DNA of 12,816 nucleotides, taken from assembly GCA_051117555.1 (NCBI GenBank), contig JBNPEG010000103.1, forward strand, positions 1-12,816, given 5' to 3'. Positions 1 through 12,816 of the stretch are shown piece after piece (position 1 is the stretch's first letter; every line of letters begins with the position of its first letter). Below the pieces are notes generated by a model. The model did not search any database, was not told the DNA's origin, and saw nothing but the letters and a program-made list of their open reading frames with translations. The position numbers and the translations under genes were made by a program. The stretch is from Elainellaceae cyanobacterium (GTDB taxonomy: Bacteria > Cyanobacteriota > Cyanobacteriia > CAZCXK01).

Positions 1-58
1 TCGCCGCGTCCTTCAGGGTTGACTTGACCCTTTCATCCAGTGTCAGCCCAATCCGCAT
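1..58 (-). CDS. N-terminus of ISAzo13-family transposase (partial, runs off left edge)
   Basis: Minus-strand ATG at 58 with a GAGG RBS upstream. It reads MRIGLTLDERVKSTLKDAA, like the recalled N-termini of cyanobacterial ISAzo13 transposases (..VKxTxKDAAxKL..). Only 19 codons are visible and it is absent from the ORF track. Confidence 0.65.
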   Translation of the reverse strand, partial: MRIGLTLDERVKSTLKDAA

Positions 59-124
59 TGCCCAGCCTCTTGAATGTTCACTTGGCTTCCATGATAACTG
101 GTATCTTATTCATGAGCGAGTCCC
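1..124 (-). mobile_element. Left end of ISAzo13-like insertion sequence; candidate terminal inverted repeat ~98-124
   Basis: Transposase start at 58. Upstream on the minus strand is TA-GGGACTCGCTCATGAATAAGATACCAG, resembling the GGG...AATAA.TACC ends I recall for this family. The partner IR lies outside the window. Confidence 0.5.
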
Positions 125-162
125 TAACAACACCGGTTTAAGACTATCTATACTTTTGAAGC

Positions 163-2559
163 TCATTTGTGTTCAAGCATTTTGTAGAGGCTCAGACTAA
201 AAATTGCCGCCAGTCCCAGGGCTAATGCTGAGGGAACTAAAGGCACCCACCATCCTTGAACAAATAACAAAAGGCATACTCCCCACAGCGTCGTTAATCC
301 AACTAACAAACTGATGACTCGCAAATAGGGCGATCGCCACCATCCTACAAAGATTGCTCCCACCATTGCCCATCCTGCAATCCAAAGCATTTCTGCCCAC
401 TCTACCCACCCTGATAATAGAGGACGTTCTCCAAGAGCCGCACTGATGATCGTGCTGGCCATGTGAGCATGCACCACAACTCCAGGCATTCGGTCTGCTG
501 TCTCTCCTCTGCTGTAGGGTGTTAGATGAGTGTCGATTTGCGGATTAACAACTCCAATTAAAACAATGCGATCGCCCACCAGTTCGTTCAGTTGAGAATC
601 TAAGGAACCACTTAAGATTTCTCTTAAATGCACAATTTCTGGACGTTTGACACGGTAGTTGATCAATACTTGATAGCCTCCTACATCTTCTGAAAAAAGC
701 TGATAGCTCCCCGTTCTTTGCTGAAGTCGTTGAAAAATTTGATGGCCCAGCCGAATCTGCTGAGTGTCATCAGAAGGTGTTGTAACCCACTCCATTGACA
801 TATCCGCTTGCTTTTCTAAATAGTCTTGAGCGATGCGGAAGCTAAACGATTCTTCGGTTGGACAAATCTCATCCGGTGGCATTCCCAAAAATTGCCGACG
901 AATCACACCATCTGGATCAAGGGGAATGTTGCTGAATCCTAAATGATTGGTTGGAAAATTCGTCGTGGGTGGCGCAATTCCTGCAAGATTGCTGACGGTG
1001 TTTCTAGCTCGACAAATTGCAATTAAACCCTGATCAGCCAGTTGCGGCTGCAAATCTTGACGAAACGGAAAATCGTGAATGATATCTAATCCAACAACGC
1101 TGGGATGATGGGGCGAAATCTTTTGTAAGAGCTTGAGTAACGCATCATCCGATAACGATCCTTCCATCTCCATCCCTTGACTGCGCTGATACTGAATATC
1201 GTCTTCTGAGACAGCGACAATCAAAATTCGATCATCTGGAGCGTTTTGCCCTAGTCGAATACGAATGAAGTGGTCATAGGCTTTCAGTTCCCAGTTTTGT
1301 AAACCACCAAGCGATCGCACTCCGACGACCAAACTGGATACAAGCACGCTACTAAGCAGAGCCGTTCCATATTTTCTGAACGCCATGCGTCGAGAGTTTG
1401 TTTGACTGGATGCCGCAACAACTGAATCTGCGACAGGCGATAGTTGATTGGCTAACTGATGCTCTGGACTGACTAAATCAGACCACTCTAGGGACAATGC
1501 AGCAGGCTGCTGATAGACAATCGGCAACCAACTTGCACAGGGATAGTTTTTCTCCAATCCCTGCAACCGTTCCCGTGCTTCTCGCTCTGCCAGATGCAAC
1601 GGCTGACCTTGGGCAAAAGCTCTGAGAAAATACTTGAGGAACTGCTGGGCAATTGGGTCAGGGACTGCTTCTCGCATCACAATCATGTGGGGTAGCTGAA
1701 GGTCAGCTAAGTCGCGAGCCAACCCCAAGCCATCGCAGGAATTAAAGATAGCAAGCTGCAGTCCATTGGCGATCGCCCGTCGCATGCCGTATCTGACCTC
1801 ATCCATAGTTAAACAGGTGGTTGAGTTCAGCCGCAAAACTCCCTGCCCCTCTGGCTCTGTTTCACTATGTCCAGCAAAAAACAAAATATCCCAAGACTGC
1901 TCATATAAAGCATCGTTGAATTCGCGATGGGACGGTTCTACCAAAAACTCAATATGAGCTCCAGGGAGCTGGTTTAAGGACTGGCGATCGCTCTCTAAGT
2001 CAATATTTTGGCGATCGCCCAGCACGGCTAGGATATTCACCAGCTTTTGATCTGAAGCTGCTGCGTTACGTTCGTTCAAGCACGGATGCGATCGCATCCC
2101 GCTCAAGGCAATTTCCGCCTTAGGATACTGTTCAACGAAATCCCACAAATGCCATGGAAGCGCCTGAGCCTCGGCACTAGCCGTACGAATCAGCACTTGA
2201 ATCGCATCACTCGGCGTGAGTGCCTGCCGCAAGTGCAGATCTACATCCCGAAACGAGTCCGCCCGCAACCACTGCTGAAACTGCTGAACCAATTGCTGGG
2301 CAGAGTCTATACAGGCGTCTATCGGATTAATCGTGCCGTCGTATTTGATTTTGTAAGGTTTTAAGGCGCGAGTTGGTGTAGAAAGGCGGCGATAGTCGTG
2401 TTGCCATTGAGTGAGATGATTCGACAGAAGCATAGAAGGCGGAAGATAGCCATCAATGCTGGTGCCGGCAGCCACGTCGCTCTGCCCAACATGCAATGTG
2501 ACATAAGATCCTTGATGGTCGAGGTTGCCCTTCAGCTCTAAGACAGCACGTTTATTCAT
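163..2559 (-). CDS. Membrane CHAT (caspase/HetF-like peptidase) + CHASE2 sensor domain protein
   Basis: 798 aa. CHAT motifs: LPWHLWDF, LFFAGHS (His231), IFNSCDG (Cys275), MREAVPD, CASWLP. One TM (~aa 398-420), then CHASE2 motifs (WELKAYD, DDRILIVAVSEDDI, VVGLDI, DPDGVIRRQ, DRIVLIG, MPGVVVHAHM) and three C-terminal TM helices. Confidence 0.92.
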   Translation of the reverse strand: MNKRAVLELKGNLDHQGSYVTLHVGQSDVAAGTSIDGYLPPSMLLSNHLTQWQHDYRRLSTPTRALKPYKIKYDGTINPIDACIDSAQQLVQQFQQWLRADSFRDVDLHLRQALTPSDAIQVLIRTASAEAQALPWHLWDFVEQYPKAEIALSGMRSHPCLNERNAAASDQKLVNILAVLGDRQNIDLESDRQSLNQLPGAHIEFLVEPSHREFNDALYEQSWDILFFAGHSETEPEGQGVLRLNSTTCLTMDEVRYGMRRAIANGLQLAIFNSCDGLGLARDLADLQLPHMIVMREAVPDPIAQQFLKYFLRAFAQGQPLHLAEREARERLQGLEKNYPCASWLPIVYQQPAALSLEWSDLVSPEHQLANQLSPVADSVVAASSQTNSRRMAFRKYGTALLSSVLVSSLVVGVRSLGGLQNWELKAYDHFIRIRLGQNAPDDRILIVAVSEDDIQYQRSQGMEMEGSLSDDALLKLLQKISPHHPSVVGLDIIHDFPFRQDLQPQLADQGLIAICRARNTVSNLAGIAPPTTNFPTNHLGFSNIPLDPDGVIRRQFLGMPPDEICPTEESFSFRIAQDYLEKQADMSMEWVTTPSDDTQQIRLGHQIFQRLQQRTGSYQLFSEDVGGYQVLINYRVKRPEIVHLREILSGSLDSQLNELVGDRIVLIGVVNPQIDTHLTPYSRGETADRMPGVVVHAHMASTIISAALGERPLLSGWVEWAEMLWIAGWAMVGAIFVGWWRSPYLRVISLLVGLTTLWGVCLLLFVQGWWVPLVPSALALGLAAIFSLSLYKMLEHK

Positions 2560-2582
2560 GAGCTTGTGTTAACTCACCATAC

Positions 2583-3569
2583 CTACACCACAAATGATTC
2601 ATCCAGGGTCACATCTCCCAGCTTGATTTGCAACGAAAAGCGATCGCCCGGCACGGCATGAAACCCCAACTCAATCATCCGATTTTCATCTCGCGCTTGC
2701 GCTTGCATCACGGGTTCACCCACCGCATCCAAGACAGCCATTTCCAATCCTGTTGGCAAAAACACTTGCTGAGTTGGAGGTAATATTTTTAAGGCAATGT
2801 CCATTTCTGTGGTTGACTTAGGCATCAGTTCTGCAATCAGTAGAATCGTTTCAATCCCTTGATGAGTGGGTAGTTCTAAGAATTTGCCCCGAGTAATCCG
2901 CGACAATGCTGGCACAACCGATTCAGACTCAACCGATTCAGACTCAGCCGATCGAGTACTTCGCCATTGATAGTTTAATGAAGGTGTCACCAACAGCTCA
3001 TCAAGCGATCGCCAGCCTGCTTCAATCTGACCTTTCATCCAGTGGGTAAACTGGGTGACTGGATGAGGGACAGATTGAGGCTTACATTGATCAATATACA
3101 GAGGGAATTCTGCCATCGGACGAATCTGGCTCAATGCGAGTGTTTCATCTTCAACGTGATGGGTAAATCCAAGAATCAGAGCGTTTGACTGATCGGGCTC
3201 AATCTGCACCACCACATAGGCAAGGCGATCGCTCTGCACGTCAGTCGGAACATAGCATACTGATGTATCTTGCACTGATGGAGACATTGGACGACATTCA
3301 ATCCGTCCTCGTCCGATAACTTCCAAATCAGCAACATTCGTGGTCATCCGCATCAACGGATTCCAGCTATCACAATTCGATGGGTCAGCGGGAATGCCGA
3401 GAATTTTCAAATAGTTATTGACGGCACAAACGGCTAGCGTATTCAGGTGAACCTGCCGTGCTCGTGTTTCATCGGACTGCTGCTGGGCAAATTGACGGGC
3501 AATATATCTCGCCTCTTGCGTAATGAAGACGGGCACCGCTACCTCCTCTGCTCGGATTGGGTCAATCAT
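2583..3569 (-). CDS. DUF1822 family protein
   Basis: 328 aa with the family signatures ARQFAQQQ..RQVHLNTLAVCAVNNYL, DSWNP, ADLEV.G.GRIECRP, DRLAYVVV and a C-terminal beta domain (LPTGL..VLD..GE, GDRFSLQIKLGD..E.FVV). Gaps of 23-25 bp to both neighbours suggest an operon. Confidence 0.88.
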   Translation of the reverse strand: MIDPIRAEEVAVPVFITQEARYIARQFAQQQSDETRARQVHLNTLAVCAVNNYLKILGIPADPSNCDSWNPLMRMTTNVADLEVIGRGRIECRPMSPSVQDTSVCYVPTDVQSDRLAYVVVQIEPDQSNALILGFTHHVEDETLALSQIRPMAEFPLYIDQCKPQSVPHPVTQFTHWMKGQIEAGWRSLDELLVTPSLNYQWRSTRSAESESVESESVVPALSRITRGKFLELPTHQGIETILLIAELMPKSTTEMDIALKILPPTQQVFLPTGLEMAVLDAVGEPVMQAQARDENRMIELGFHAVPGDRFSLQIKLGDVTLDESFVV

Positions 3570-3594
3570 AATGGCTACCGTGTTGAATGAAGTC

Positions 3595-4251
3595 TTATTT
3601 TGGGTTTTCTTCTAAATATCCTTGGGCAATTCCAAACTCTCGCAGGAGGGGCAGACAATTGCGGTTGTAGAATTTGGGTAGGTCTTTCGCTTCTGCTGCA
3701 TTGAGGTCAAACTCATGGGCAATATCCTGCCAGGGGGTTTCAGATGGAAAGCGTTTGAGAAACAGCACTTGAGCGTTGATGTCTGGACGCTTGCGGAAAC
3801 ACGTTGTGCGAAGCTTATCGTCTGGATCATCACGTACCCAACTAAGGGTGGTGTACCAGATCTGCTCGGCTCGATCAATACCAGGATTGGAGGCTAGAGT
3901 GTTGAGGGGATTGAGCATAGTGCCATCCTCCGTTGGCACAGGGTTCACTATTCGATCCTGAGCGCGAATTTGGCGATCGCGCCATTTCTTCAGCGTCCAT
4001 TTTAAGCGGTTATCGATCCAAGTGGTGACAGCGCTGAGCGTCGGGTCATATTCGTCTAAATGGTGGCAGCAATACTCCCACGTTTCTTGAAGAGCGTCCC
4101 CATAATAGGGAGTGGTTTCGTTCCAGAGTTTCCTTGATCCCATGACTAATCGATAAATTTCCTGGATGCACTGCTGACGCTCCACGCTCCGGGAAGGATG
4201 GGTGCAGGCGTCGGCAACCAGTTGCTTCAAGGTGTCGTTTAATGCACTCAT
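3595..4251 (-). CDS. Cyanobacterial sigma-70-family (ECF-like) sigma factor
   Basis: 218 aa. LKQLV.DAC.HP..S.ERQ, YYGDALQETW, YDP....VTTWID..LKW (region 2-like) and C-terminal PWQDIAHEF...LPKFYNRNCLPLLREF (region 4-like HTH). This family is typically found upstream of DUF1822 genes. Confidence 0.8.
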   Translation of the reverse strand: MSALNDTLKQLVADACTHPSRSVERQQCIQEIYRLVMGSRKLWNETTPYYGDALQETWEYCCHHLDEYDPTLSAVTTWIDNRLKWTLKKWRDRQIRAQDRIVNPVPTEDGTMLNPLNTLASNPGIDRAEQIWYTTLSWVRDDPDDKLRTTCFRKRPDINAQVLFLKRFPSETPWQDIAHEFDLNAAEAKDLPKFYNRNCLPLLREFGIAQGYLEENPK

Positions 4252-4370
4252 AGTTTGATTGACCTAGGTGGCGGGGGCATTGAATGCCACATGTCGTCTC
4301 TGCGAGTGGAGTAATGGAATTAGCCGCTGCCTCCACCAGCATTAAACAGTTATATGGACGTGAAAAGACA

Positions 4371-4417
4371 TTTTCGCAAAATGACGCAAAAAACTTTCTT
4401 GACGAATTTTGCGAAAA
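4371..4417. promoter_or_regulatory. Perfect 12-bp inverted repeat in the divergent promoter region
   Basis: TTTTCGCAAAAT (4371-4382), 23-nt spacer, ATTTTGCGAAAA (4406-4417), between the sigma start (4251) and the secreted-protein start (4552). The regulatory role is inferred. Confidence 0.45.
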
Positions 4418-4551
4418 GTGGGTTCGCCATTCCTATAGCTCTATAGATTGGATGCGATGCTTCTGCAATCCGATGGAATAAAAGGTGTTGTGAAAGGATT
4501 GCTTTCATTCGAACTATTTGTCCTTTAGTCCATAAACTTAGAGAGATTCCA

Positions 4552-4902
4552 ATGAAAAAAAAGACACTAAGCTTAATTGTGGGTATGGCTACAACTGCTT
4601 CTTTAGGAATTTTCAGTTCCGCTTTTGCGGGTCCCGTTCCAAGTCCGCCATATGTCAATTTGGGCGGATTAGATCTGGCAGAGTATTGCAAAAGCACCTT
4701 CGGGAATAATTCACAGCCCGTCGTCGTGGAAGAAAATGCCTATGGTTGGCGATGCTTAGTTCCTCTTGGTGGTGGTCGTGTCTCCTATGAAGGAATGAAT
4801 CTCAATCGGGCTTGCCAAGTCCAATACAATGACCGACGTGCAGCATCTGGATATTTGGATTGGGATGATGTTTATTCTTGGATTTGTTGGAGAGGTGAAT
4901 AA
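4552..4902 (+). CDS. Small secreted protein with a duplicated two-Cys motif
   Basis: 116 aa. Sec signal peptide MKKKTLSLIVGMATTASLGIFSSAFA ending in A-F-A. The mature part has two related halves: LDLAEYCKSTF...NAYGWRC and MNLNRACQVQY...DVYSWIC. Confidence 0.85.
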   Translation: MKKKTLSLIVGMATTASLGIFSSAFAGPVPSPPYVNLGGLDLAEYCKSTFGNNSQPVVVEENAYGWRCLVPLGGGRVSYEGMNLNRACQVQYNDRRAASGYLDWDDVYSWICWRGE

Positions 4903-5025
4903 TCAAGTAATTGAGGCATAAGAGTCTCAGTAGATCGAAAAGCCTTGTCAAACCGGGGATGAGAACAAGAAAAGGGGTAAGGTCAGGCTAAGCAAAATTT
5001 CAAACCAGTGCCATGACCTTACGAT

Positions 5026-5109
5026 GTCTGCCTTCTGATTTCTCCCTTCTCCCTTCTGATTTCTCCCTTCTCCCTTCTGATTTCTCCCTTCTCCCCTCTC
5101 TCTTCTACC
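5026..5109 (+). repeat. STRR-type heptamer tandem repeat with 21-bp higher-order period
   Basis: (TTCTGAT TTCTCCC TTCTCCC)x3 at 5033-5095, flanked by degenerate heptamers, directly downstream of the cas6 stop. Confidence 0.9.
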
Positions 5110-5110
5110 T

Positions 5111-6316
5111 TTAATTCTCTTCTTCCCTCAGCGATCGCCTCGCCAGTTTGGAATAGGTTTTTACCGTTTCGTAAGGCATTTCTAAATCCGCAGCAATATC
5201 CTGTAGCGACTCGCCAAACTCCCGTCGCGCCAGGATAGTAGCATGGGTTTCTGCAATCGCCTGAGCGCGATCGCCCCCTTTTCGCTTGCGTTGAGCAATA
5301 AATCGATTCGTTAAGTCTTCGATGCGCTGGGCTAGTAGCTGAGCTGTTTGGGTTGCTGGGTCAAGGGCAAGCTCATCCGTTTTTTCTGGCGATGACCAGC
5401 CTAGTTGGGTTTGACCTAGACCAAACGTTGTTTTGTGACCCGTGCCGCAGTAGGGAGCAAGATGAACAAGCGTATAAGCCAGTTGAACAAATTCAGGGTG
5501 CTTTTGGGCGGATGCAGTCAAGCCAAACTCAATCGCTCCAGTGAAGCCGGTTACTGATCCTCGTTTACCTGCTGCTACTTTGAGCGATCGCAGGTGGTGT
5601 CGCTGAATGATGATATATTCATCGAGCCAGTCTAAGAACTCATCCTGGTCAACCGGGGTTTGACCGGATAAGTCGTTCCACCGCCGTAGGTAGCTATGAA
5701 AGATATTACGCGGAATTGGCAGTGGTAGATGACGCCCTTTGCTGCGAAAGCTGGTTGGTGAGAGAAAGCTCAGAGCAATGCTGAATTTGGTAGGCGGCTG
5801 CAATTTTGCCAGTTGCGCATAGGTCAGTGGCTCATTCGCAATTTCCACCTGAGCAATTTTAAGCGGAGCATCCCGCAGTTCCAAAACCTCTGGCATACTT
5901 TCCAACCATCGCTGGAGCCACTGTACAACAGGCTTTGAAAGAGCGGTCACTGTCCAACGATAGGTCTGATCCTGGGTCAATCTCAGGTGTTGACCACTGG
6001 GCACGAAAGCACCATCAAGCCCCGAAATCGTGAATGCTTTTTCGGAAGAATCATCATGAAGCTGTCGGGATAAAGCGGGGTCAGTCTGGCGAATTTGATC
6101 GAGAAACCAAGCGTGCAGGCCGATGCTGTATTGAGCGTAGAGGTCGCTATTTTGCAGAGCAACTAAATTAAATCTCAACCCAATCAGCTCGGTCTCATCG
6201 CTCCAGGTTGGCGTTGAACGAGATGAAGTGGAACGGTGTGTGCGGCGTCGAGAGCGCTGAGAGGTCGATTTTGACTTGGTTTGGGTGGTAGTTTTACGAG
6301 TTTTGGATACTGGCAT
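5111..6316 (-). CDS. cas6: CRISPR-associated endoribonuclease Cas6 with C-terminal HTH extension
   Basis: 401 aa. GLHAWFLDQ, LHD...KAFTIS, FLSPTSFR, PLPIPRNIFHSYLRRWN, GFTG and the Gly-rich loop YCGTGHKTTFGLG. The extra C-terminal ~85 aa ends in GESLQDIAADLEMPYETVKTY. Confidence 0.95.
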   Translation of the reverse strand: MPVSKTRKTTTQTKSKSTSQRSRRRTHRSTSSRSTPTWSDETELIGLRFNLVALQNSDLYAQYSIGLHAWFLDQIRQTDPALSRQLHDDSSEKAFTISGLDGAFVPSGQHLRLTQDQTYRWTVTALSKPVVQWLQRWLESMPEVLELRDAPLKIAQVEIANEPLTYAQLAKLQPPTKFSIALSFLSPTSFRSKGRHLPLPIPRNIFHSYLRRWNDLSGQTPVDQDEFLDWLDEYIIIQRHHLRSLKVAAGKRGSVTGFTGAIEFGLTASAQKHPEFVQLAYTLVHLAPYCGTGHKTTFGLGQTQLGWSSPEKTDELALDPATQTAQLLAQRIEDLTNRFIAQRKRKGGDRAQAIAETHATILARREFGESLQDIAADLEMPYETVKTYSKLARRSLREEEN

Positions 6317-6366
6317 GAGAGCGATTCTCGTTGTGAACTACGATGCGATCGCATGATTGAACCACA

Positions 6367-6403
6367 CCAATTTAACCATGAGTCCCCGTTTGGGGATAAA
6401 ATT
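6367..6403 (+). other. Solitary degenerate CRISPR-repeat-like hairpin upstream of cas6
   Basis: CCAATTTAACCATGAG-TCCCC-GTTT-GGGGA-TAAAATT resembles cyanobacterial 36-37 nt repeats ending TCCCCGNNNGGGGANNGAAAC. It is a single copy without the exact GAAAC end. Confidence 0.35.
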
Positions 6404-6519
6404 CCATAGTTTTTGTAACAATGATAAGGTAGGGCAGCTAGTGAAAATTGCATCCAATCGCTTGAAGACATCGTTAGGCACAAGTTTAGCCGTCCTTTTG
6501 GGATGTTACTTTGAGGCTC

Positions 6520-6855
6520 ATGCGCTTCCTCTCGACCTCAATCAACCTGAGGATGCAGACGTTCATTGAAAACACGAGGACGTTCATTGAAAACGTGAGG
6601 ACGTTCATTGAAAACACGAGGACGTTCATTGAAAACACGAGGACGTTCATTGAAAACGTGAGGACGTTCATTGAAAACGCGAGGACGTTCATTGAAAATG
6701 TTGCCACGTTCAAAGAAAACGTGAGGGCGTTTATTGAAAACGTCGTCGTGTTCAACGAAACGCTGCTATTTTTGCCGTGCATCTGCGTATCACTCGGTGC
6801 GATCGCACTCTTCTGCCTTGTAAGGGCTTTGCATGCAAAGCCCCTACTGCAATGA
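6520..6855 (+). CDS. Possible heptad-repeat (TFIENxR)n protein with hydrophobic C-terminus
   Basis: The frame stays open across the array, with an ATG at 6520 after GAGG. Several repeat variants are synonymous in this frame (TTC/TTT, AAC/AAT, GTG/GTT/GTC). It may be a by-product of the repeat. Confidence 0.3.
   Translation: MRFLSTSINLRMQTFIENTRTFIENVRTFIENTRTFIENTRTFIENVRTFIENARTFIENVATFKENVRAFIENVVVFNETLLFLPCICVSLGAIALFCLVRALHAKPLLQ
6559..6768 (+). repeat. 21-bp tandem repeat, ~10 units, consensus ACGTTCATTGAAAACRYGAGG
   Basis: Units start at 6559, 6580, 6601, 6622, 6643 and 6664 (near-identical), then 6685, 6706, 6727 and 6748 (progressively degenerate). There are no unique spacers. Confidence 0.95.
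6820..6847. repeat. GTAG-type REP-like palindrome
   Basis: GTAAGGGCTTTGCATGCAAAGCCCCTAC, 28 nt, 11 bp downstream of the stop of the 6859-7143 gene. Its ends match those of the element at 9045-9072. Confidence 0.75.
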
Positions 6856-6858
6856 TTA

Positions 6859-7143
6859 CTACTGCTCGCGCGATCGCCAGCGAATCAAATAACTCATCAC
6901 GTCACCCTCCTCTGGTGTAACTAAGATGCCTGTTTCAGGCACTGTGATCAACTGACTCCATAATCCTTGCTCCACATAGTTGAGCACGTGCAAACGGTTG
7001 ATCGTGTGCCGCACTCCTGCACGGGAACCGAGCAGAATATGACGCAAGGGTTCTCGGCTGGGTTGAGCAGACGGGGATGCAATCAATAGGGGCTCGGTCG
7101 CCTCACTGTGAGAGCGAGGCGAGGATAGATACGGTACTAACAT
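6859..7143 (-). CDS. Small conserved cyanobacterial hypothetical protein (94 aa)
   Basis: ATG at 7143 with GGAGG 8 nt upstream, a better start than 7293 in the track. The motif REPLRHILLGS..GV..TI..LHVLNY.E...WS....GDVMSYLIR matches an uncharacterised cyanobacterial family that I recognise from memory. Confidence 0.8.
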   Translation of the reverse strand: MLVPYLSSPRSHSEATEPLLIASPSAQPSREPLRHILLGSRAGVRHTINRLHVLNYVEQGLWSQLITVPETGILVTPEEGDVMSYLIRWRSREQ

Positions 7144-7231
7144 GAGGGATTCCTCCAACGTAATGGGGTAGGAATCCCAAAAATTTAGCCACCCCAGACA
7201 TGGTGCAGTGCGGGGCGGCCTCAGGTAACAT
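7103..7231 (-). CDS. Candidate 42-aa upstream/leader ORF overlapping the start of the 94-aa gene
   Basis: GGAGG-8nt-ATG(7231), reading MLPEAAPHCTMSGVAKFLGFLPHYVGGIPHVSTVSILASLSQ-stop (TGA 7105-7103). It runs through the RBS hairpin of the downstream gene in a different frame. Confidence 0.45.
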   Translation of the reverse strand: MLPEAAPHCTMSGVAKFLGFLPHYVGGIPHVSTVSILASLSQ

Positions 7232-7237
7232 AGGCAC

Positions 7238-7324
7238 ATCCTCCGCGACAGGGTTCGTCTGTCGTGGGGGTCAGGTATCGGGAGTTGGTGCAAACAGCTC
7301 TCGGTACCGCCTGACTAAATTTTT
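7238..7324 (+). ncRNA. Candidate cis-antisense small RNA (~87 nt, two hairpins plus U-tail)
   Basis: Hairpin 7240-7270 (12 bp, 2 G-U) and hairpin 7274-7308 (14 bp, 3 G-U) pair fully only as + strand RNA. They are followed by TAAATTTTT and preceded by a -10-like TAACAT at 7226-7231. The ends are inferred. Confidence 0.55.
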
Positions 7325-7510
7325 GGGGAAACCAAGCTGCTAGACAAACAGCTATAGCATCCAACGCTATCGGATTTGGGGATGGGAGTCAAGTCAAAAT
7401 GGCTACCAAACCTCAGCCATATCTGGATAGAATCGATGAATGACAGACCTGCACATGTTTGTAATGCAACGCCCAATCTCTGGCTCCTGTGGGGGTCGGG
7501 CGATCGCTCC

Positions 7511-7590
7511 TTGGTTGTCTCTAGTTGTCTCTAGTTCTCTACCTTCCGCTTTCCGCCTTCCGTCTTCCGCCTTTCGCCTTCCGCCTTCCA
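7511..7590 (+). repeat. Short tandem repeats: 10-mer CTAGTTGTCT-like x3, then STRR heptamer TTCCGCC x6-7
   Basis: ttggttgtct ctagttgtct ctagttctct, then ttccgct ttccgcc ttccgtc ttccgcc tttcgcc ttccgcc (7544-7585). Confidence 0.85.
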
Positions 7591-7597
7591 TTTGCAA

Positions 7598-7603
7598 TAT
7601 AAT
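7598..7603 (+). promoter_or_regulatory. Candidate -10 box for the Uma2 gene
   Basis: Perfect TATAAT 70 bp upstream of ATG 7674, which has a GAGGAG RBS. No clear -35. Confidence 0.3.
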
Positions 7604-7673
7604 GACAGCAGTCTTAACAAATACATTCTGATATAGGACGAGCATTCCCAAAGCACCTATTGAGGAGCGTCAA

Positions 7674-8243
7674 ATGACCTCTGTTGCGCTAAACCTCAAA
7701 CCCATTACTCATTTATCTCGTGAGCAGTTTTATGCGCTGTGTCAAGCGAATCCAGACCTCAAGCTTGAACGATCTGCCCAAGGAGACTTGATCATCGTGT
7801 CACCCGTTGGAGGAACTGGAGGAAGCCAAGAAGCCGATTTGCCCATCGACTTAGGGCTCTGGAATCGCCACAACCAGTTGGGAAATGTATTTAGCTCCTC
7901 GACAATCTTCAGCCTGCCTAATGGATCTGACCGCTCTCCTGATGCAGCCTGGGTCAAGGGCGATCGCTGGGATGCCTTGACACCAGAACAACAACAAGGC
8001 TTTCCGCCCCTGTGTCCTGACTTTGTGATTGAATTGCGATCGCCTACCGATCGCCTAAAACTCCTACAAGAAAAGATGCAGGAATATATTGACAATGGGC
8101 TACGCCTTGGCTGGTTGATTGATCCGCAAAACAACCAAGTCGAAATTTATCGCCCCAATCAAGCCGTTGAAATTTTTCCATTCCCTGCTCAACTCTCAGG
8201 AGAAGACGTGCTGCCTGGTTTCTCATTAACCGTCGGAGGATGA
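7674..8243 (+). CDS. Uma2 family (DUF820) PD-(D/E)xK endonuclease
   Basis: 189 aa. QFYALCQANPDLKLERSAQGDLII, FSSSTIFSLPNGSDRSPDAAWV, PLCPDFVIELRSPTD, KMQEYIDNGLRLGWLIDP, LSGEDVLPGF. Confidence 0.95.
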   Translation: MTSVALNLKPITHLSREQFYALCQANPDLKLERSAQGDLIIVSPVGGTGGSQEADLPIDLGLWNRHNQLGNVFSSSTIFSLPNGSDRSPDAAWVKGDRWDALTPEQQQGFPPLCPDFVIELRSPTDRLKLLQEKMQEYIDNGLRLGWLIDPQNNQVEIYRPNQAVEIFPFPAQLSGEDVLPGFSLTVGG

Positions 8244-8304
8244 TTGGATTCTTTAACTATGAAATATTTAATAATTAAGTAATCATCCTTTCGGAGGTCA
8301 ATCG

Positions 8305-8541
8305 ATGCAGTTAACCATTCAGGCCATCTATGAGGAAGGTGTACTCAGACCAACTCACCCCATCGAATTGCCAGACGGCACCCAAGTTTTAATCGTGATT
8401 ACTACCCCTGAACCTATTTCCGTCTCTGATTCGGCAGGAATTTTAGCTGAAATCGCGAGTCTTCCTCAAACATCCCCCACTCAGGAGTTTTCCAACCGTA
8501 ATCATGATGAACAGCTTTATTCTGCTGAGGCAAATCCGTGA
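8305..8541 (+). CDS. DUF104/AF2212-like antitoxin
   Basis: 78 aa. TIQAIYEEGVLRP..PIELPDG..V motif, C-terminal FSNRNHDEQLY, GGAGG RBS and a GTGA overlap with the downstream PIN gene. Confidence 0.85.
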   Translation: MQLTIQAIYEEGVLRPTHPIELPDGTQVLIVITTPEPISVSDSAGILAEIASLPQTSPTQEFSNRNHDEQLYSAEANP

Positions 8542-8935
8542 TTTTTGTCGATACGGGTGCTTGGTTCGCCAGCGCTGTACCCTCTGATTCAGATCATTCA
8601 GCAGCTACACAGTGGCTGAAACAGAATGTCGAACCACTACTGACGACTGACTACATCATTGACGAGACATTGACATTGCTAAGAATGCGGCGGGAACAGC
8701 AGCGGGCGCTGGCGCTGGGGGAAGCCTTTTTCTCCGGACGGCTATCGAGCATCTATTACTTAACAGACGAGGATGTTCGCGCAACCTGGCAAATTTTTCG
8801 TCAGTTCTCCGATAAGAATTGGAGCTTTACCGATTGCGCTAGCAAGGGAGTTATCGAGAAGTTGAATATTTCCCAAGCCTTTGCTTTGATAATCATTTTC
8901 GTCAGTTTGGCTCTGTCAAGGTTGTGCCGGAATAG
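8538..8935 (+). pseudogene. vapC: VapC/PIN-domain toxin with a 1-bp frameshift near the 3' end
   Basis: MIFVDTGAW, TTDYIIDETLTLL, WSFTDCAS. Adding one T to the run at 8885-8887 restores the canonical ending QAFAFDNHFRQFGSVKVVPE-stop (TAG 8933-8935). As given, the frame reads on to 9131. Confidence 0.85.
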
Positions 8936-8960
8936 TTTTCCATGCTTTAGTCATCTAGTA

Positions 8961-8985
8961 GTAGGGTGCATCAATGACGCACCTA
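8961..8985. repeat. GTAG-type REP-like hairpin / possible terminator
   Basis: GTAGGGTGCATCAATGACGCACCTA followed by TTTTT, 25 bp after the restored vapC stop. Confidence 0.55.
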
Positions 8986-9044
8986 TTTTTAACGCAAGAG
9001 GCGATCGTTCTTATAGACATAAGCTGATTCTGGGTATGAACTGG

Positions 9045-9072
9045 GTAAGGGCGTTTGGCCAAACGCCCCTAC
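9045..9072. repeat. GTAG-type REP-like palindrome
   Basis: GTAAGGGCGTTTGGCCAAACGCCCCTAC, 28 nt, between the convergent vapC and WYL genes. Confidence 0.75.
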
Positions 9073-9132
9073 AGCCGTTATCTGCGATCGCCCTTTATTC
9101 TTCTAATGGGCAACGTCGGATTGCGCGGTGAC

Positions 9133-10299
9133 TTAGCCTTTGTAGAGTTGGACAACACCCAGCGCCGCTTTGTAATGACGTTCTGCCAGTTCGGGCGGGG
9201 TCAAGATTTTTGCAGCATTCATAAACCGATAAACCCATCGACAAAACTCATTGAGCGATCGCCCCGGCAATTCCACCGAATAATCAACGTAGGGATTATC
9301 TGGATTGCGCCCTTTGCGAATCACCTGCTTAGGATGACGACGCTCGCCCTCCACGATGAACGGCAGCGCAGGCGGAAAAAACCTCACCACAACATTGGTA
9401 AACTCAAGCGTTCCTGCTTTTTCAGCGGCTTGTTCGTCAGGTTTCCCCAAATAAAGCCCCCATCCTTGAGTCAGCAACTGATGGGCGATCGCCAATCGCT
9501 CCAACTGGGTAGACGTACTTCGCCCTGAGCCATCGAGAACCTTGATGAAATCTCTAAGGCGATCCATTCGCTCGACTTCAAAATGTCCATCATCAACGTA
9601 TTCATAGAGGAGATACCAAGCAATATCTGAATAGATGAGCTGAATGGGGTAGACTGCTAAATGCCCCGTGTTCATTGTGTCATAAGGTTCGCGCTGTCGA
9701 TAAATCTCAATCGGCTGCCCTTCAACAATTGCATCTTCAATGTCTTTTAGCCGATGAAACAAAGACGTGCGATACTGCCCCCGCTGCATCATTTCATCGG
9801 GGTCAGTGTGCACAATGACGCGGTTCAGGTGCGATCGCACGGGATAAAACAACTGCCCGTCGCTCTCCAGATTCAACCCCCGCAGCCGCAGTTCCAACCG
9901 TTCACACACTCGACGCGCTGATGGATCGCCTTGATGACGAGCCTGCGACAAAAGCGCCTGCACTGCTAATTGAAGCTCGTCGTAAGTTAATGCGCCAGTG
10001 CCAAGGTAATATCCCCAGCGATACATGCGCCGATCGAGGATGCCATACTGTCTCAACACTCTCAGATCTTTACGAATCGTCGAGATTGAGTAAGCCGGTA
10101 AGTCAATTCCACAGCGTTTTGCCGTATCTTGCAGGCGATCGCTTACTTCTTGAAGTGCTTGATGATGGTGTCCATCGGATAAATTCTCTGAGTCTGCACT
10201 CCCCACCCCTGGATACTGTATGAATGTGGCAATCAACAGTAGCAACCGCTCAAAAGACTGGCGATCGCTATAGGAATGAAGAATTGGCTTCTTAACCAT
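9133..10299 (-). CDS. CRISPR-associated WYL-domain transcriptional regulator (wHTH-WYL-WCX)
   Basis: 388 aa. FERLLLLI and wHTH YSISTIRKDLRVLRQYGIL..GYYLG; WYL core VYPIQLIYSDIAWYLLYE..ERMDRL; C-terminal HPKQ..EFCRWV.RF...AKILTPPEL. Divergent from cas10. Confidence 0.92.
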   Translation of the reverse strand: MVKKPILHSYSDRQSFERLLLLIATFIQYPGVGSADSENLSDGHHHQALQEVSDRLQDTAKRCGIDLPAYSISTIRKDLRVLRQYGILDRRMYRWGYYLGTGALTYDELQLAVQALLSQARHQGDPSARRVCERLELRLRGLNLESDGQLFYPVRSHLNRVIVHTDPDEMMQRGQYRTSLFHRLKDIEDAIVEGQPIEIYRQREPYDTMNTGHLAVYPIQLIYSDIAWYLLYEYVDDGHFEVERMDRLRDFIKVLDGSGRSTSTQLERLAIAHQLLTQGWGLYLGKPDEQAAEKAGTLEFTNVVVRFFPPALPFIVEGERRHPKQVIRKGRNPDNPYVDYSVELPGRSLNEFCRWVYRFMNAAKILTPPELAERHYKAALGVVQLYKG

Positions 10300-10324
10300 T
10301 TATCATTGATTTGTCAATTAAAAG

Positions 10325-10389
10325 AATCTATTCATGCTCCCTTACTAGAGCCTACAATCTATTCATAGGAATTAGGTTTGAATGATTCT
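10325..10389. promoter_or_regulatory. Candidate WYL operator: repeated AATCTATTCAT boxes
   Basis: Exact 11-bp direct repeat at 10325-10335 and 10356-10366, plus an inverted copy with a 1-nt deletion (TGAATGATTCT, 10379-10389), in the AT-rich WYL/cas10 intergenic region. Confidence 0.5.
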
Positions 10390-10512
10390 GGAGAATTACA
10401 AACAATATTTTCTTTTTAATGACTTTTATTGAGATCCCCTGTTAGATTAATCATCGATCGGACTAAGGTGAAGAGACTTTTGCCATCCATGGCCCTATGG
10501 AAGGAAATCATC

Positions 10513-12753
10513 GTGTCAAACGCATTCTGGCAAGCAAAAATTTGGGGACTACTGCATGACCCTCTGCTCAAGCCTTCTCGTGAAGACGAAGATGAATACC
10601 TCAGACTTTCACAGGGTCAACACTCCTCAGACTGGCTCAAACAGGCAAGCTCTATCGCTTCAGCTAGCGATCGCGCCCTGTTTGACTTAATACCTGGTCA
10701 GCCTGACCCCGATCGTTCGGTTACGGTGAGTCATTTGCTATCTGGTGAATCCTTGCCCCTTAGCTACAACTGGCAGGCTGTGATGCAGTTGCATAGTCAA
10801 ATTGAATCAGCAATCACAGAGCACAGTCCTCTTAAATCTGTTATTCCACCAGAAACATCCCCTGTTAGCGATCTGAAGCAACAATTTTGGTGGCTGTGGC
10901 GATGCTTACCAGAAGTCATTGCTCAAACTGACTCTGCTCAATTACTGACGCCAGCAACCCACATTTTGCCAGATGTTTCAATTTGGAGTCAGGCCAGTCT
11001 TACGGCAGCTATGGCGGGAACCTTGGCTGAGTACAGCGATACGTCAGAGAGCAATAGTGGCGATCGCCCCTACCTGACGGTCTTCAGCTTCACTCCTGTG
11101 CAAGAGCTAATCAAAGCCAGTCGCAAAATGCGCGACTTTTGGGCGGGTTCTTGGGTACTTCATTATCTCTCAGCCAAAGTTTGTTGGAAGTTAGCCCAAC
11201 AGTATGGCCCAGATAGCTTGATATATCCCAGTCTGTTTCAACAGCCATTGATCGATCACTGGGTGCTAGAAGAGTGGGATAGCTTCGGTGAATGGATTAT
11301 GCCCAAAGATCAGCCAAAATCGCTGCGGTATCGCAAACTGCTCACTGCTGGGTTTCCTAATGTAATTGTGCTGCTATTGCCCCAAGGAAAAGTCAAAGCA
11401 GCAATGCAAACCGCTCGCCAAACTCTAAATGAGGAGTGGCTTAGCTTAGGAGAAGAGGTATTTGCAGAATTACATGATCAACAGCAATGGATGCCTAGCC
11501 TTGAAGCGGACAATCGTACCTGGAAAGGCTGGCTGAGGTCTCAGTGGCAGCCCTATTGGACTGCTTTACCCGTCGGTCACTCCGAGACAGATTATTTATC
11601 TATAGAAGCTACAAGTGATGAATTCGAGTCGTGGTTAAACAATCAAAACTTTGCGTGCAATCTTAAAAAAGAAGATCACCAGCTCTTTGCTCAAGAAGAG
11701 AACTCTTTACTTAAAGCAGTTTTGGTCAGTCAGTCCGGTATAGATCAAGGTGGTACTGTTACGGTCAATGCGGGTTCTTGGTGTCCCTATCTTTTTGACC
11801 AACTCCGCTTCAGTCTTAGCTCGGTCAAAAGTGCTCGGGTTTGGAAGTTGCCTACAGCATTTGGTCCCCATTCTACTATCTCAGGATTTGGCCCTGTTGT
11901 ATATCCTCATGACAAGCAGAAGCGAATCACTGAAACCGATGCTAGCCAATTTTGGGGAAATCAGTGGGAAGCAGATCTTAGTGATGCTGCACAGCCACAC
12001 GACCGTGCAGGACTATTTGATGGTCGAGAGCAACTCAATGCCAGCGAAACTCTGAAGAGAGGACTACATAAGATTCTACACCGCAAGAAAGTCCTCAATA
12101 TTGAAGATCGCGACCTTAAGAAAGATGCGATCGCAGCAGCATATCCCGATCTCACTGCTGGCATTGCAGGTTATCTCAAAACCTACAAAGCATTTGAGGA
12201 TCAACAGGAAAATAGTGCACAGGTGCCCCGTAAGCAGCATTTCGTCCAGGTTTGCAACAGAATTGTTGAGACGCATTCTTGGGCTGAAAAAGTAGCCGAG
12301 GAAATGCGAAAGAAATGGGGTATTCCCTGGATAGACGACAATTCTGAACCTAAAAAATACCATTCTCGATTTCTGAACCCTGGTTGGCTGGTAGAGGATG
12401 CCATTACACCCAAACTCACTGAACTTAGGCAATCACTCAAACACGCTATTCTTTCTGAAGACGCAACTCAGATAAAGCATTTTAGGCAGGAAATCACGCG
12501 CCAAAAAGTGGAATATCGCGAAGACATTCGTAGCATCATCGCCGATTACTATCCCAACAACAACCCCGCCGATTGGTATGTTCTAGCCGCCGGAGACGGC
12601 GATGGGATGCGCCGCTGGCTCAAGGGTACACCCCTAGAACACTACAAGGATTACATGCCGTATGATGCAGAGCTGCCTGAGCCAATCCATAGGGAGCACG
12701 TCACTTTCTACGTAAAAAAATACTGGTCAGGAGAGAGGTCGTCATTCAGATAA
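10513..12753 (+). pseudogene. cas10: Type III-B Cas10/Cmr2, interrupted by an IS at ~12691 (5' fragment)
   Basis: Probable GTG start at 10513 after AAGGA. Motifs WQAKIWGLLHDP, IASASDR, FSFTPVQELIKASRKMRDFWAGSWVLHYLS, AGFPN, QLNASETLKR, WYVLAAGDGDGM. There is no GGDD motif, and the last ~20 codons are IS-derived. Confidence 0.92.
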
Positions 12754-12816
12754 GCGCAACGGTGAGCCAAAACTTGTGGAACCCGTTCCGCTTCCCAGGA
12801 AGCCCCGGCGAGCTTG
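12692..12816 (-). mobile_element. Right end of ISKra4-family (IS256-related) insertion sequence
   Basis: Candidate terminal IR GGGAGCACGTCACTTTCT from 12692, abutting the transposase stop codon. Cas10-like sequence ends here. Confidence 0.8.
12708..12816 (-). CDS. C-terminus of ISKra4-family transposase (partial)
   Basis: The minus strand reads KLAGASWEAERVPQVLAHRCAYLNDDLSPDQYFFT-stop, matching the recalled cyanobacterial ISKra4 C-terminal motif K.SGA.W....VPQVL.HRCAYLN. It is absent from the ORF track. Confidence 0.85.
   Translation of the reverse strand, partial: KLAGASWEAERVPQVLAHRCAYLNDDLSPDQYFFT

Follow-up and report, generated by a model that had tools for sequence, protein, structure and literature searches.

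How a membrane protein that carries both a periplasmic sensor and a cytoplasmic caspase-like protease might be connected to a sigma factor encoded beside it is the question raised by a locus in an Elainellaceae cyanobacterium (assembly GCA_051117555.1, contig JBNPEG010000103.1, positions 1 to 12,816 of the forward strand; this whole stretch of 12,816 nt is termed the window). Three minus-strand genes, separated by gaps of 23 and 25 nt in the list of open reading frames (ORFs), encode a divergent extracytoplasmic function (ECF)-type sigma factor, a DUF1822 protein and a sensor-protease with CHAT and CHASE2 domains (Table 1), bearing out the tightly spaced, co-oriented trio described in an initial annotation of this DNA. 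A 300-nt intergenic region (4252-4551) separates the sigma gene from a divergent gene for a small secreted protein. The reading preferred here, to which a probability of roughly 0.45 is given, is that the trio is an autoregulated signalling operon of a filamentous cyanobacterium in which the sensor-protease controls the sigma-DUF1822 pair, with DUF1822 being the likely substrate of the protease and the partner of sigma. The observations that carry it are the gene content and linkage of the cassette, an invariant catalytic dyad, the topology of the sensor-protease, a promoter motif present in a second copy, and a model of DUF1822 with two domains and an intervening loop.

In cyanobacterial genomes taken at one per species the sigma protein has at least 567 relatives, and the best 80 loci were analysed by searching their six-frame ORFs with the window proteins. 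All are cyanobacterial by title but one contig labelled Gracilibacteria. In 79 of the 80 loci the gene immediately downstream of sigma, in the same orientation, encodes DUF1822; the sole miss is a 1100-bp contig. The two genes are closely apposed, with a 4-nt overlap of the sigma stop and DUF1822 start in 26/79 loci and a distance of 50 nt or less in 64/79. A gene with the N-terminal domain of the sensor-protease followed by CHAT occurs in 67/80 loci and is directly downstream in 57/80; all three genes are co-oriented in 57/80, and the conservation of the trio across cyanobacteria, which the initial annotation had put to a neighbourhood survey, is confirmed by these counts. In 10 loci from the Rivularia/Calothrix/Richelia group the protease gene is placed upstream on the opposite strand, 0.35-5 kb away. 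For six of the 13 loci without a protease gene, the sequence on the downstream side of DUF1822 is shorter than 2 kb. A second search anchored on DUF1822 (tblastn against plasmids, 23 records, 10 opened) found a gene of 216-250 amino acids directly upstream of DUF1822 in 10/10 plasmid loci, matching the sigma profile with an expect value (E) of at most 2.3e-16 in 8/10, and a gene with the N-terminal domain and CHAT within the stretch in 7/10. Two upstream genes from Picosynechococcus miss the sigma profile, and one of these is annotated as sigma-70 family. The linkage is robust and, judged by gene order, sigma, DUF1822 and the sensor-protease are a conserved functional unit. In a plasmid of Pseudanabaena sp. 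ABRG5-3 (L082, 6613-8544) an M48 metallopeptidase gene directly follows DUF1822, with a CHAT gene 4 kb beyond, and its product may be a non-homologous protease partner. A locus labelled as a Candidatus Gracilibacteria metagenome-assembled genome (MAG; L046) has the cassette, its protease gene being broken into two ORFs; this is probably a cyanobacterial contig that was binned wrongly and contains a frameshift.

The sensor-protease is built from a constant N-terminal domain, the CHAT domain and the CHASE2 domain. The catalytic residues His231 (motif FFAGHS, codon 1867-1869) and Cys275 (motif FNSCDG, codon 1735-1737) are invariant in all 58 of the 58 aligned homologues. Hydropathy places transmembrane (TM) helix TM1 at approximately residues 399-417 and three C-terminal TM helices at approximately 722-792, with CHASE2 located between them in the topology of CHASE2 sensors, and the basic residues preceding TM1 on inspection of the sequence indicate that the N-terminal half is cytoplasmic. 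The chain ends at residue 798, six residues past the last TM helix, and therefore no domain follows it. It is unusual for a CHASE2 sensor to have its output domain N-terminal and nothing C-terminal of the last TM helix. The initial annotation described this output correctly as to the intact dyad and the absence of anything after the last TM helix; its statement that CHAT is the only cytoplasmic output needs correction, because residues 1-185 form a further conserved cytoplasmic domain and CHAT is not the sole module there. A search with that domain matches 1155 cluster representatives at E ≤1e-3, a number that falls to 568 at E ≤1e-10, and in most of the 150 representatives listed the match is N-terminal, within proteins of 70-1752 amino acids. 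Related loci keep the N-terminal domain and CHAT constant and swap the sensor part: CHASE2 is found in 56 of the 80 loci, tetratricopeptide repeats (TPR) in L027 and L059, a periplasmic Phosphonate-bd domain in L040, L051 and L080, and an adenylate/guanylate cyclase domain (Guanylate_cyc) is inserted ahead of CHASE2 in L049 and L054. In the alignment of homologues no position is conserved across residues 360-398, which link CHAT to TM1, and a sequence search of the PDB with the N-terminal domain and CHAT segment returned nothing informative. By profile score the window protein is not HetF, as the HetF equivalog NF045509 gives 36.9 bits against a cut-off of 1200 with an alignment restricted to the CHAT core.

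The product of 3595-4251 is accepted as a divergent ECF-type sigma factor on family-level sequence matches and a structural model. The sigma label of the initial annotation is retained because of this family-level and fold evidence and not by curated thresholds, which the protein fails (TIGR02937, 19 bits compared with a cut-off of 42.9; E 8.6e-4). The window protein has no sigma domain in Pfam, and neither it nor its profile gave a sigma match in sequence searches of the PDB; the rows for TKTI1, an integrase and designed proteins in the PDB sequence searches with sigma, the profiles and the N-terminal domain plus CHAT segment were rejected as chance. Of 96 sigma relatives found, many carry the NCBI name 'sigma-70 family', and among those aligned TIGR02937 matches at E ≤0.1 in 23/35 (best 8.6e-9) and Pfam Sigma70_r2 in 2/35. 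The AlphaFold2 model (predicted local distance difference test, pLDDT, 85.7) shows helical domains at residues 1-100 and 123-209 separated by a 22-residue low-confidence linker, the arrangement of sigma2 and sigma4 with a short linker that defines ECF (group 4) factors. The top Foldseek matches in the PDB are Escherichia coli sigmaE (1or7_A, E 0.023, probability 0.97), SigH and AlgU, with none reaching E ≤1e-3, and the sigma2 domain of SigC (2o7g_A) matches the model with a TM-score by target of 0.71. As the curated sigma models miss this family, it is probably under-counted in sigma censuses. Among 35 relatives Cys61 and Cys199 are invariant and Cys62 is near-invariant (YCC motif); these three cysteines could form a redox or metal site, which would be unusual among ECF sigma factors.

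The DUF1822 protein matches its Pfam family over the full length (residues 15-327, E 4.7e-58). Hydropathy detects no TM segment in either DUF1822 or the sigma-like protein, which therefore share the compartment of CHAT. The AlphaFold2 model of DUF1822 was built from 37 sequences (pLDDT 86.6) and is composed of helices at residues 18-56, a mixed α/β region extending to approximately 178, a stretch at 197-218 whose pLDDT is below 50 and an all-β sandwich at 225-327; DUF1822 is thus modelled as two domains and a disordered loop, not as TPR repeats. In 77 sigma-linked DUF1822 proteins the loop is flanked by Arg203 (in L-A-F-R, 74/77), Arg227 (74/77) and Lys229 (68/77), and the stretch between the two arginines is variable in both length and sequence. 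In the window 15 nt duplicated in tandem at 2915-2952 yield SAESESVESESV and make the loop longer than that of the closest homologue P0100, and therefore the loop tolerates a change of length. By analogy, conserved arginines placed around a disordered loop would be compatible with an Arg-directed caspase-like protease. In the N-terminal domain (3293-3329) residues Asp81 (76/77), Glu91 (75/77), Cys92 (77/77) and Arg93 (74/77) are carried by adjacent predicted strands, 81-84 and 88-95. This domain may, on the model, have a nuclease-like fold; its matches in BFVD are phage proteins of approximately 160-200 amino acids (TM-score by target 0.5-0.6), one of them named 'Restriction endonuclease'. In Atlas language-model features the clusters nearest to DUF1822 are named 'PatU' (score 0.82), a lead by the rating of the tool and unconfirmed.

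A bipartite motif recurs ahead of the sigma genes. In the 300 nt upstream of sigma a k-mer count finds TGCGAAAA in 49/81 sequences compared with 0.5 expected from shuffles, and the aligned instances give TGCGAAAA(A)-N16/17-(C)GTnTAACT(A). A scan with a position weight matrix (PWM) places the motif on the same strand within 520 nt upstream of sigma in 64/81 loci, a conserved bipartite -35/-10 element before the own gene as expected of autoregulated ECF factors, at which the sigma factor itself would act. In total the PWM gives 93 matches in the 81 real loci and 1 in the shuffled loci; because the matrix was trained on sigma-upstream copies, the independent matches are the 29 located elsewhere, and independent support for the promoter motif comes from the unbiased k-mer count. 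In the window TGCGAAAA occurs exactly twice, both times inside 4252-4551, the two copies being back to back with identical 16-nt spacing. One faces the operon, and in the other, at 4410-4417 (+), the -10-like TATAGCT box at 4434-4440 ends 111 nt short of the start codon (ATG) of the secreted-protein gene. This pair agrees with the proposal in the initial annotation that sigma drives the divergent gene, which on the motif evidence is most likely. The A-to-G variant of the divergent -10 is also seen in three sigma-upstream copies (L013, L037 and L066), and back-to-back pairs whose -35 boxes are 34-37 nt apart are found in five Moorena loci, L037 and L006. Genes following extra motif copies differ by lineage and encode a LuxR-type regulator (Moorena), an RTX-repeat protein, a DUF4388 protein and a 149-amino acid secreted protein. 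As the motif stands upstream of sigma and extra copies precede lineage-specific genes, sigma is probably autoregulatory and in control of a local regulon specific to the strain.

In the Rivularia/Calothrix group an extra motif downstream of DUF1822 precedes a gene for a 150-174-amino acid protein with an HTH_23/28/32/33 domain (L023, L024, L026, L029, L033, L034, L045 and L058), and genes for giant TPS-domain exoproteins lie on the opposite strand beside the HTH gene in L024 and L033. A divergent motif in L029 (6218, -) and L030 (6639, -) precedes a gene, oriented toward the protease gene, for a membrane protein (with a Fer4_5 domain in L029); given this copy, the protease gene may still be controlled by sigma where it is upstream on the other strand.

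The secreted protein has a signal-peptide-like N terminus (MKKK start, hydrophobic residues 8-26, an AFA-G junction) and four cysteines. The closest locus, L001 from an Elainellaceae MAG, has 86% identity to the window across 125-4455 only, a span that includes the cassette and both -35 boxes and beyond which the similarity stops; L001 is without the 116-amino acid gene and on that side encodes a 90-amino acid Transgly_assoc membrane protein. No homologue was found in any of the 80 loci (0/80) and no relative in a word-indexed set of 5.8 billion proteins. On these three results the secreted protein is rejected as a conserved partner, and it has no support as a CHASE2 ligand, a pairing that the initial annotation had put forward for complex modelling. 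A feature-based lead in Atlas is a 118-amino acid cyanobacterial cluster (score 0.92). Judged by the motif and its distribution, the protein is probably a strain-specific local target of sigma and not a conserved component.

Several described systems combine similar parts. Kaur, Iyer, Burroughs and Aravind (eLife 2021, PMC8195603, section 9) reported, on computational grounds only, a neighbourhood of an EACC2-caspase, an ECF sigma factor and DUF1822, in which a constant N-terminal α+β domain termed 'EACC2' and a caspase domain are followed by a variable C terminus ('e.g. CHASE2') with TM helices, and proposed stimulus-induced autopeptidase activation with sigma as the transcriptional output. 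The window protein, with its constant N-terminal domain, CHAT and TM-bracketed CHASE2, or another sensor in related loci, and with ECF-like sigma and DUF1822 neighbours, places the cassette in this class on domain content. The section calls DUF1822 a TPR protein, unlike the helical and α/β domain, loop and β-sandwich modelled here, and gives the autopeptidase idea without a promoter, a substrate site or an experiment. The initial annotation had known of no experimental description of the pathway; none for any member of the cassette family was found in the literature searched, but the computational description is in print. An architecture of a caspase homologue with CHASE2 was listed for Trichodesmium in 2010 (PMC2853523), and the main text of the ECF reclassification paper mentions neither caspase nor CHASE2. 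New here are the family-specific promoter, its second copy facing the secreted-protein gene and the two-domain DUF1822 with an Arg-flanked loop.

Among systems that have been tested, the nearest parallel is the CHAT/Csx30/sigma axis of type III-E CRISPR (Craspase, CASP-sigma), in which the CHAT protease of Csx29 (TPR-CHAT) cuts a loop between the domains of Csx30, the N-terminal domain of Csx30 binds the sigma factor RpoE, and RpoE resisted cleavage (PMC9825189). DUF1822 shares the domain-loop-domain organisation and the position beside a sigma gene, and a CHAT protease is present. Unlike Craspase, where the input is the cytoplasmic RNA-guided gRAMP, the window input would be the periplasmic CHASE2 fused to the protease, DUF1822 has no sequence or fold likeness to any solved chain, and the window protein has no TPR and no Cas7-11, the window CRISPR genes being type III-B. 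Craspase cleavage sites are not known to be arginine-based. HetF of Anabaena, like the window protein a cyanobacterial membrane-associated CHAT protease, cuts the regulator-sequestering protein PatU3 after Arg117, between R117 and S118 (PMC9457339), whereas the PatU3 partner HetZ is no sigma factor and the window protease is not HetF. In Myxococcus xanthus DdvS/DdvA an ECF sigma factor is likewise coupled to a membrane protein bearing CHAT, and DdvA is itself the anti-sigma factor (PMC6061681); unlike in the window, its TPR-CHAT is extracytoplasmic and is the same protein as the anti-sigma, whereas here CHAT is cytoplasmic and DUF1822 separate. Type III-B genes lie near the window cassette also, and as this adjacency is not conserved the parallel with type III-B control by DdvS/DdvA is only a thought for the window strain. 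The CalpL-CalpT-CalpS and SAVED-CHAT/PCaspase/PCc-sigma systems resemble the cassette in having a signal-activated protease, cleavage of a sigma factor or its partner and a transcriptional output, activated PCaspase cutting both a sigma factor and a small inhibitor protein (bioRxiv 10.1101/2023.06.23.546230). Unlike the window cassette they respond to cyclic oligoadenylates through SAVED, and their proteins are unrelated (Lon-like protease, CI-2-like inhibitor).

In the preferred reading CHASE2 of the membrane protein would sense a periplasmic cue and thereby turn on the cytoplasmic CHAT cysteine protease. CHAT would then cut DUF1822 in the inter-domain loop, after Arg203 and/or Arg227. DUF1822, made in step with sigma, would hold or modulate the sigma factor, and cleavage would alter sigma activity. 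Sigma in turn would transcribe its own operon from TGCGAAAA-N16-TATAACT, a motif present in the DNA, together with variable nearby motif-bearing genes, here that of the divergent secreted protein. A role of DUF1822 as CHAT substrate or anti-sigma factor is plausible, the features that make it so being the tight coupling to sigma seen in the overlapping genes and the disordered loop flanked by Arg203 and Arg227. A more far-reaching version, which is doubtful, would make DUF1822 a new class of cytoplasmic anti-sigma factor (nuclease-like N-terminal domain, Arg-flanked loop, immunoglobulin (Ig)-like C-terminal domain) that is cut directly by a periplasm-sensing caspase-like membrane protein, bypassing the site-1/site-2 cascade, and that is common across filamentous cyanobacteria, where sensors would be interchangeable and regulons specific to the strain.

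Several points weigh against an operon in which the sensor-protease acts on DUF1822. Seven loci whose sequence runs on for at least 4 kb beyond DUF1822 have no protease gene, four of them with approximately 6-7 kb on both sides, so the sigma-DUF1822 pair can exist without an adjacent protease. The 64 own-promoter matches are partly circular because of the training of the PWM, and the divergent copy scores 15.6 and 4.2, the latter denoting a weak -10; the matching -10 in L001 is poorer still than that in the window. The conserved arginines of DUF1822 could be structural. No resemblance of DUF1822 to Csx30 or to any known anti-sigma domain was detected: a profile search of the PDB gave 0 matches, Foldseek against the PDB gave only generic Ig-like sandwiches for the C-terminal domain, and Pfam and NCBIfam at lax thresholds with 37 DUF1822 proteins gave only DUF1822 itself and no anti-sigma family. 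DUF1822 thus lacks a Pfam, NCBIfam or PDB match that would put it among class I anti-sigma factors (ASD/zf-HC2), whose helical anti-sigma domain is N-terminal and in many cases bears a zinc motif, and the one structural row with zf-HC2 in Atlas has a TM-score of only 0.33/0.40 over the C-terminal part. Finally, sigma itself could be the CHAT substrate, since its linker also starts with a near-invariant arginine.

The proposal of section 9 of Kaur et al. (PMC8195603) leads to the first alternative, an unlikely one, in which CHAT cleaves itself on stimulus within a counter-invader or apoptosis-like conflict system and sigma is the output, with DUF1822 an adaptor and not an anti-sigma factor. The constant N-terminal module with variable sensors is confirmed here, the cassette occurs in variable island-like contexts and on plasmids, that of the window adjoins type III-B CRISPR-Cas, Uma2 and PIN genes, and a fusion of DUF1822 to a TRADD-like N domain is on record in Atlas. 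Set against this, the 360-398 linker offers no conserved residue as a mark of self-cleavage, PADLOC defence models match none of the four cassette-region proteins, CRISPR adjacency is 0/80 loci at E ≤1e-3, and the TPR description of DUF1822 is at odds with the model.

Rather less probable is that CHAT cuts sigma, as PCaspase cuts PCc-sigma, with DUF1822 acting as a protease inhibitor, chaperone or co-activator. Near-invariant Arg100 opens the low-confidence sigma2-sigma4 linker and would provide a site; ECF linkers are, however, generally flexible and basic, and a cut in the linker would inactivate sigma, a poor fit with an autoregulated promoter. Cleavage of both sigma and a small inhibitor in the PCaspase system (bioRxiv 10.1101/2023.06.23.546230) is a precedent, whereas the RpoE of Craspase was reported as resistant (PMC9825189).

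It is improbable that DUF1822 is instead a latent effector whose restriction-endonuclease-like N-terminal domain is freed by CHAT from the C-terminal β-sandwich, with sigma a parallel output. The near-invariant residues on adjacent predicted strands and the phage-protein matches in BFVD, with a similar result in Atlas, point in this direction, and the arrangement of Asp81, Glu91 and Arg93 is presumably reminiscent of the PD-(D/E)xK layout, which is unconfirmed. However, arginine takes the place of the canonical lysine, hhalign of DUF1822 against the Uma2 nuclease-fold protein of the window gives a probability of 0.1, no Pfam nuclease family matches at E ≤10 in the 37 DUF1822 members, just one structural neighbour is named, and the translational coupling to sigma suggests a stoichiometric partner. 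The least probable alternative, that the protease gene is a mere frequent neighbour of an independently regulated sigma-DUF1822 pair, draws on the seven protease-free loci and the 10 with the gene 0.35-5 kb away on the other strand, and is opposed by retention of the protease within 7 kb in 67/80 loci from many genera, by a constant module kept while sensors swap and by the same association having been made independently by Kaur et al.

Were DUF1822 cleavage by the sensor-protease true, a direct periplasm-to-sigma proteolytic switch would be added to bacterial signal transduction and DUF1822 would gain a function, in a family that is large on both counts given above (at least 567 sigma relatives and 1155 cluster representatives of the constant protease domain). 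What was a one-sentence computational note is now specific: it names a motif for the promoter, arginines at which cleavage may occur, and tractable carriers in Picosynechococcus PCC 7002 (pAQ6), Trichormus variabilis ATCC 29413 (plasmid C) and Nostoc flagelliforme (pNFSY07).

Table 1. Features of the cassette and of the remainder of the window (aa, amino acids).
Feature	Position	Strand	Basis or remark
Sensor-protease gene (798 aa)	163..2559	-	ORF; Pfam CHAT and CHASE2; homologues in 67/80 loci
Periplasmic CHASE2 sensor domain, residues 410-736	352..1332	-	Pfam E 1.1e-55; match covers positions 5-257 of the 257-position profile
CHAT caspase-like protease domain, residues 188-344	1528..1998	-	Pfam E 3.6e-14
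N-terminal constant domain, residues 1-185	2005..2559	-	Corresponds to 'EACC2' position of Kaur et al. 2021
DUF1822 gene (328 aa)	2583..3569	-	Pfam; AlphaFold2 model; directly 3' of sigma gene in 79/80 loci
Inter-domain loop of DUF1822 (Arg203 to Arg227), candidate cleavage region	2889..2963	-	Conservation and model; cleavage predicted
Divergent ECF-type sigma gene (218 aa)	3595..4251	-	Family-level TIGR02937 matches and fold matches
Predicted operon promoter: TGCGAAAA, 16 nt, TATAACT	4348..4378	-	126 nt before sigma ATG
Second, divergent motif copy: TGCGAAAA, 16 nt, TATAGCT	4410..4440	+	Faces secreted-protein gene
Small Cys-containing secreted protein gene (116 aa)	4552..4902	+	ORF; signal-peptide-like N terminus
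Cas6 gene	5111-6316	-	E 1.6e-21; weak C-terminal Sigma70_r4_2-like helix-turn-helix (E 1.7e-4, below cut-off)
Uma2 putative restriction endonuclease	7674-8243	+	E 1.2e-46
AF2212-like/PIN pair, toxin-antitoxin-like	8305-8541 and 8538-9131	+	
WYL/WCX regulator gene	9133-10299	-	
Cmr2 (type III-B; Cmr2_N) gene	10429-12753	+	ORF end 12753 close to window edge

The genes beyond the secreted-protein gene, Uma2 and the AF2212-like/PIN pair included, belong to the local surroundings of the window cassette, and none of them keeps a place beside it in the related loci. Homologues of Cas6, Cmr2 and the WYL regulator are found near the cassette in 0/80 loci at E ≤1e-3, with one Cas6 match at E 0.004, and this lack of adjacency rules out the cassette as a general regulator of type III-B CRISPR-Cas neighbours. 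In the toxin-antitoxin-like pair the PIN match falls below the cut-off and spans only the first ~100 of 197 residues; given this partial match, the ORF may be extended or damaged. Tandem repeats of 7, 14 and 21 nt based on TTCTCCC occupy 5023-5111, between the secreted-protein gene and the end of the Cas6 gene. A 21-nt tandem repeat that is not CRISPR-like (8.9 copies, 85% match) extends over 6558-6743, where long repetitive ORFs are present on both strands.

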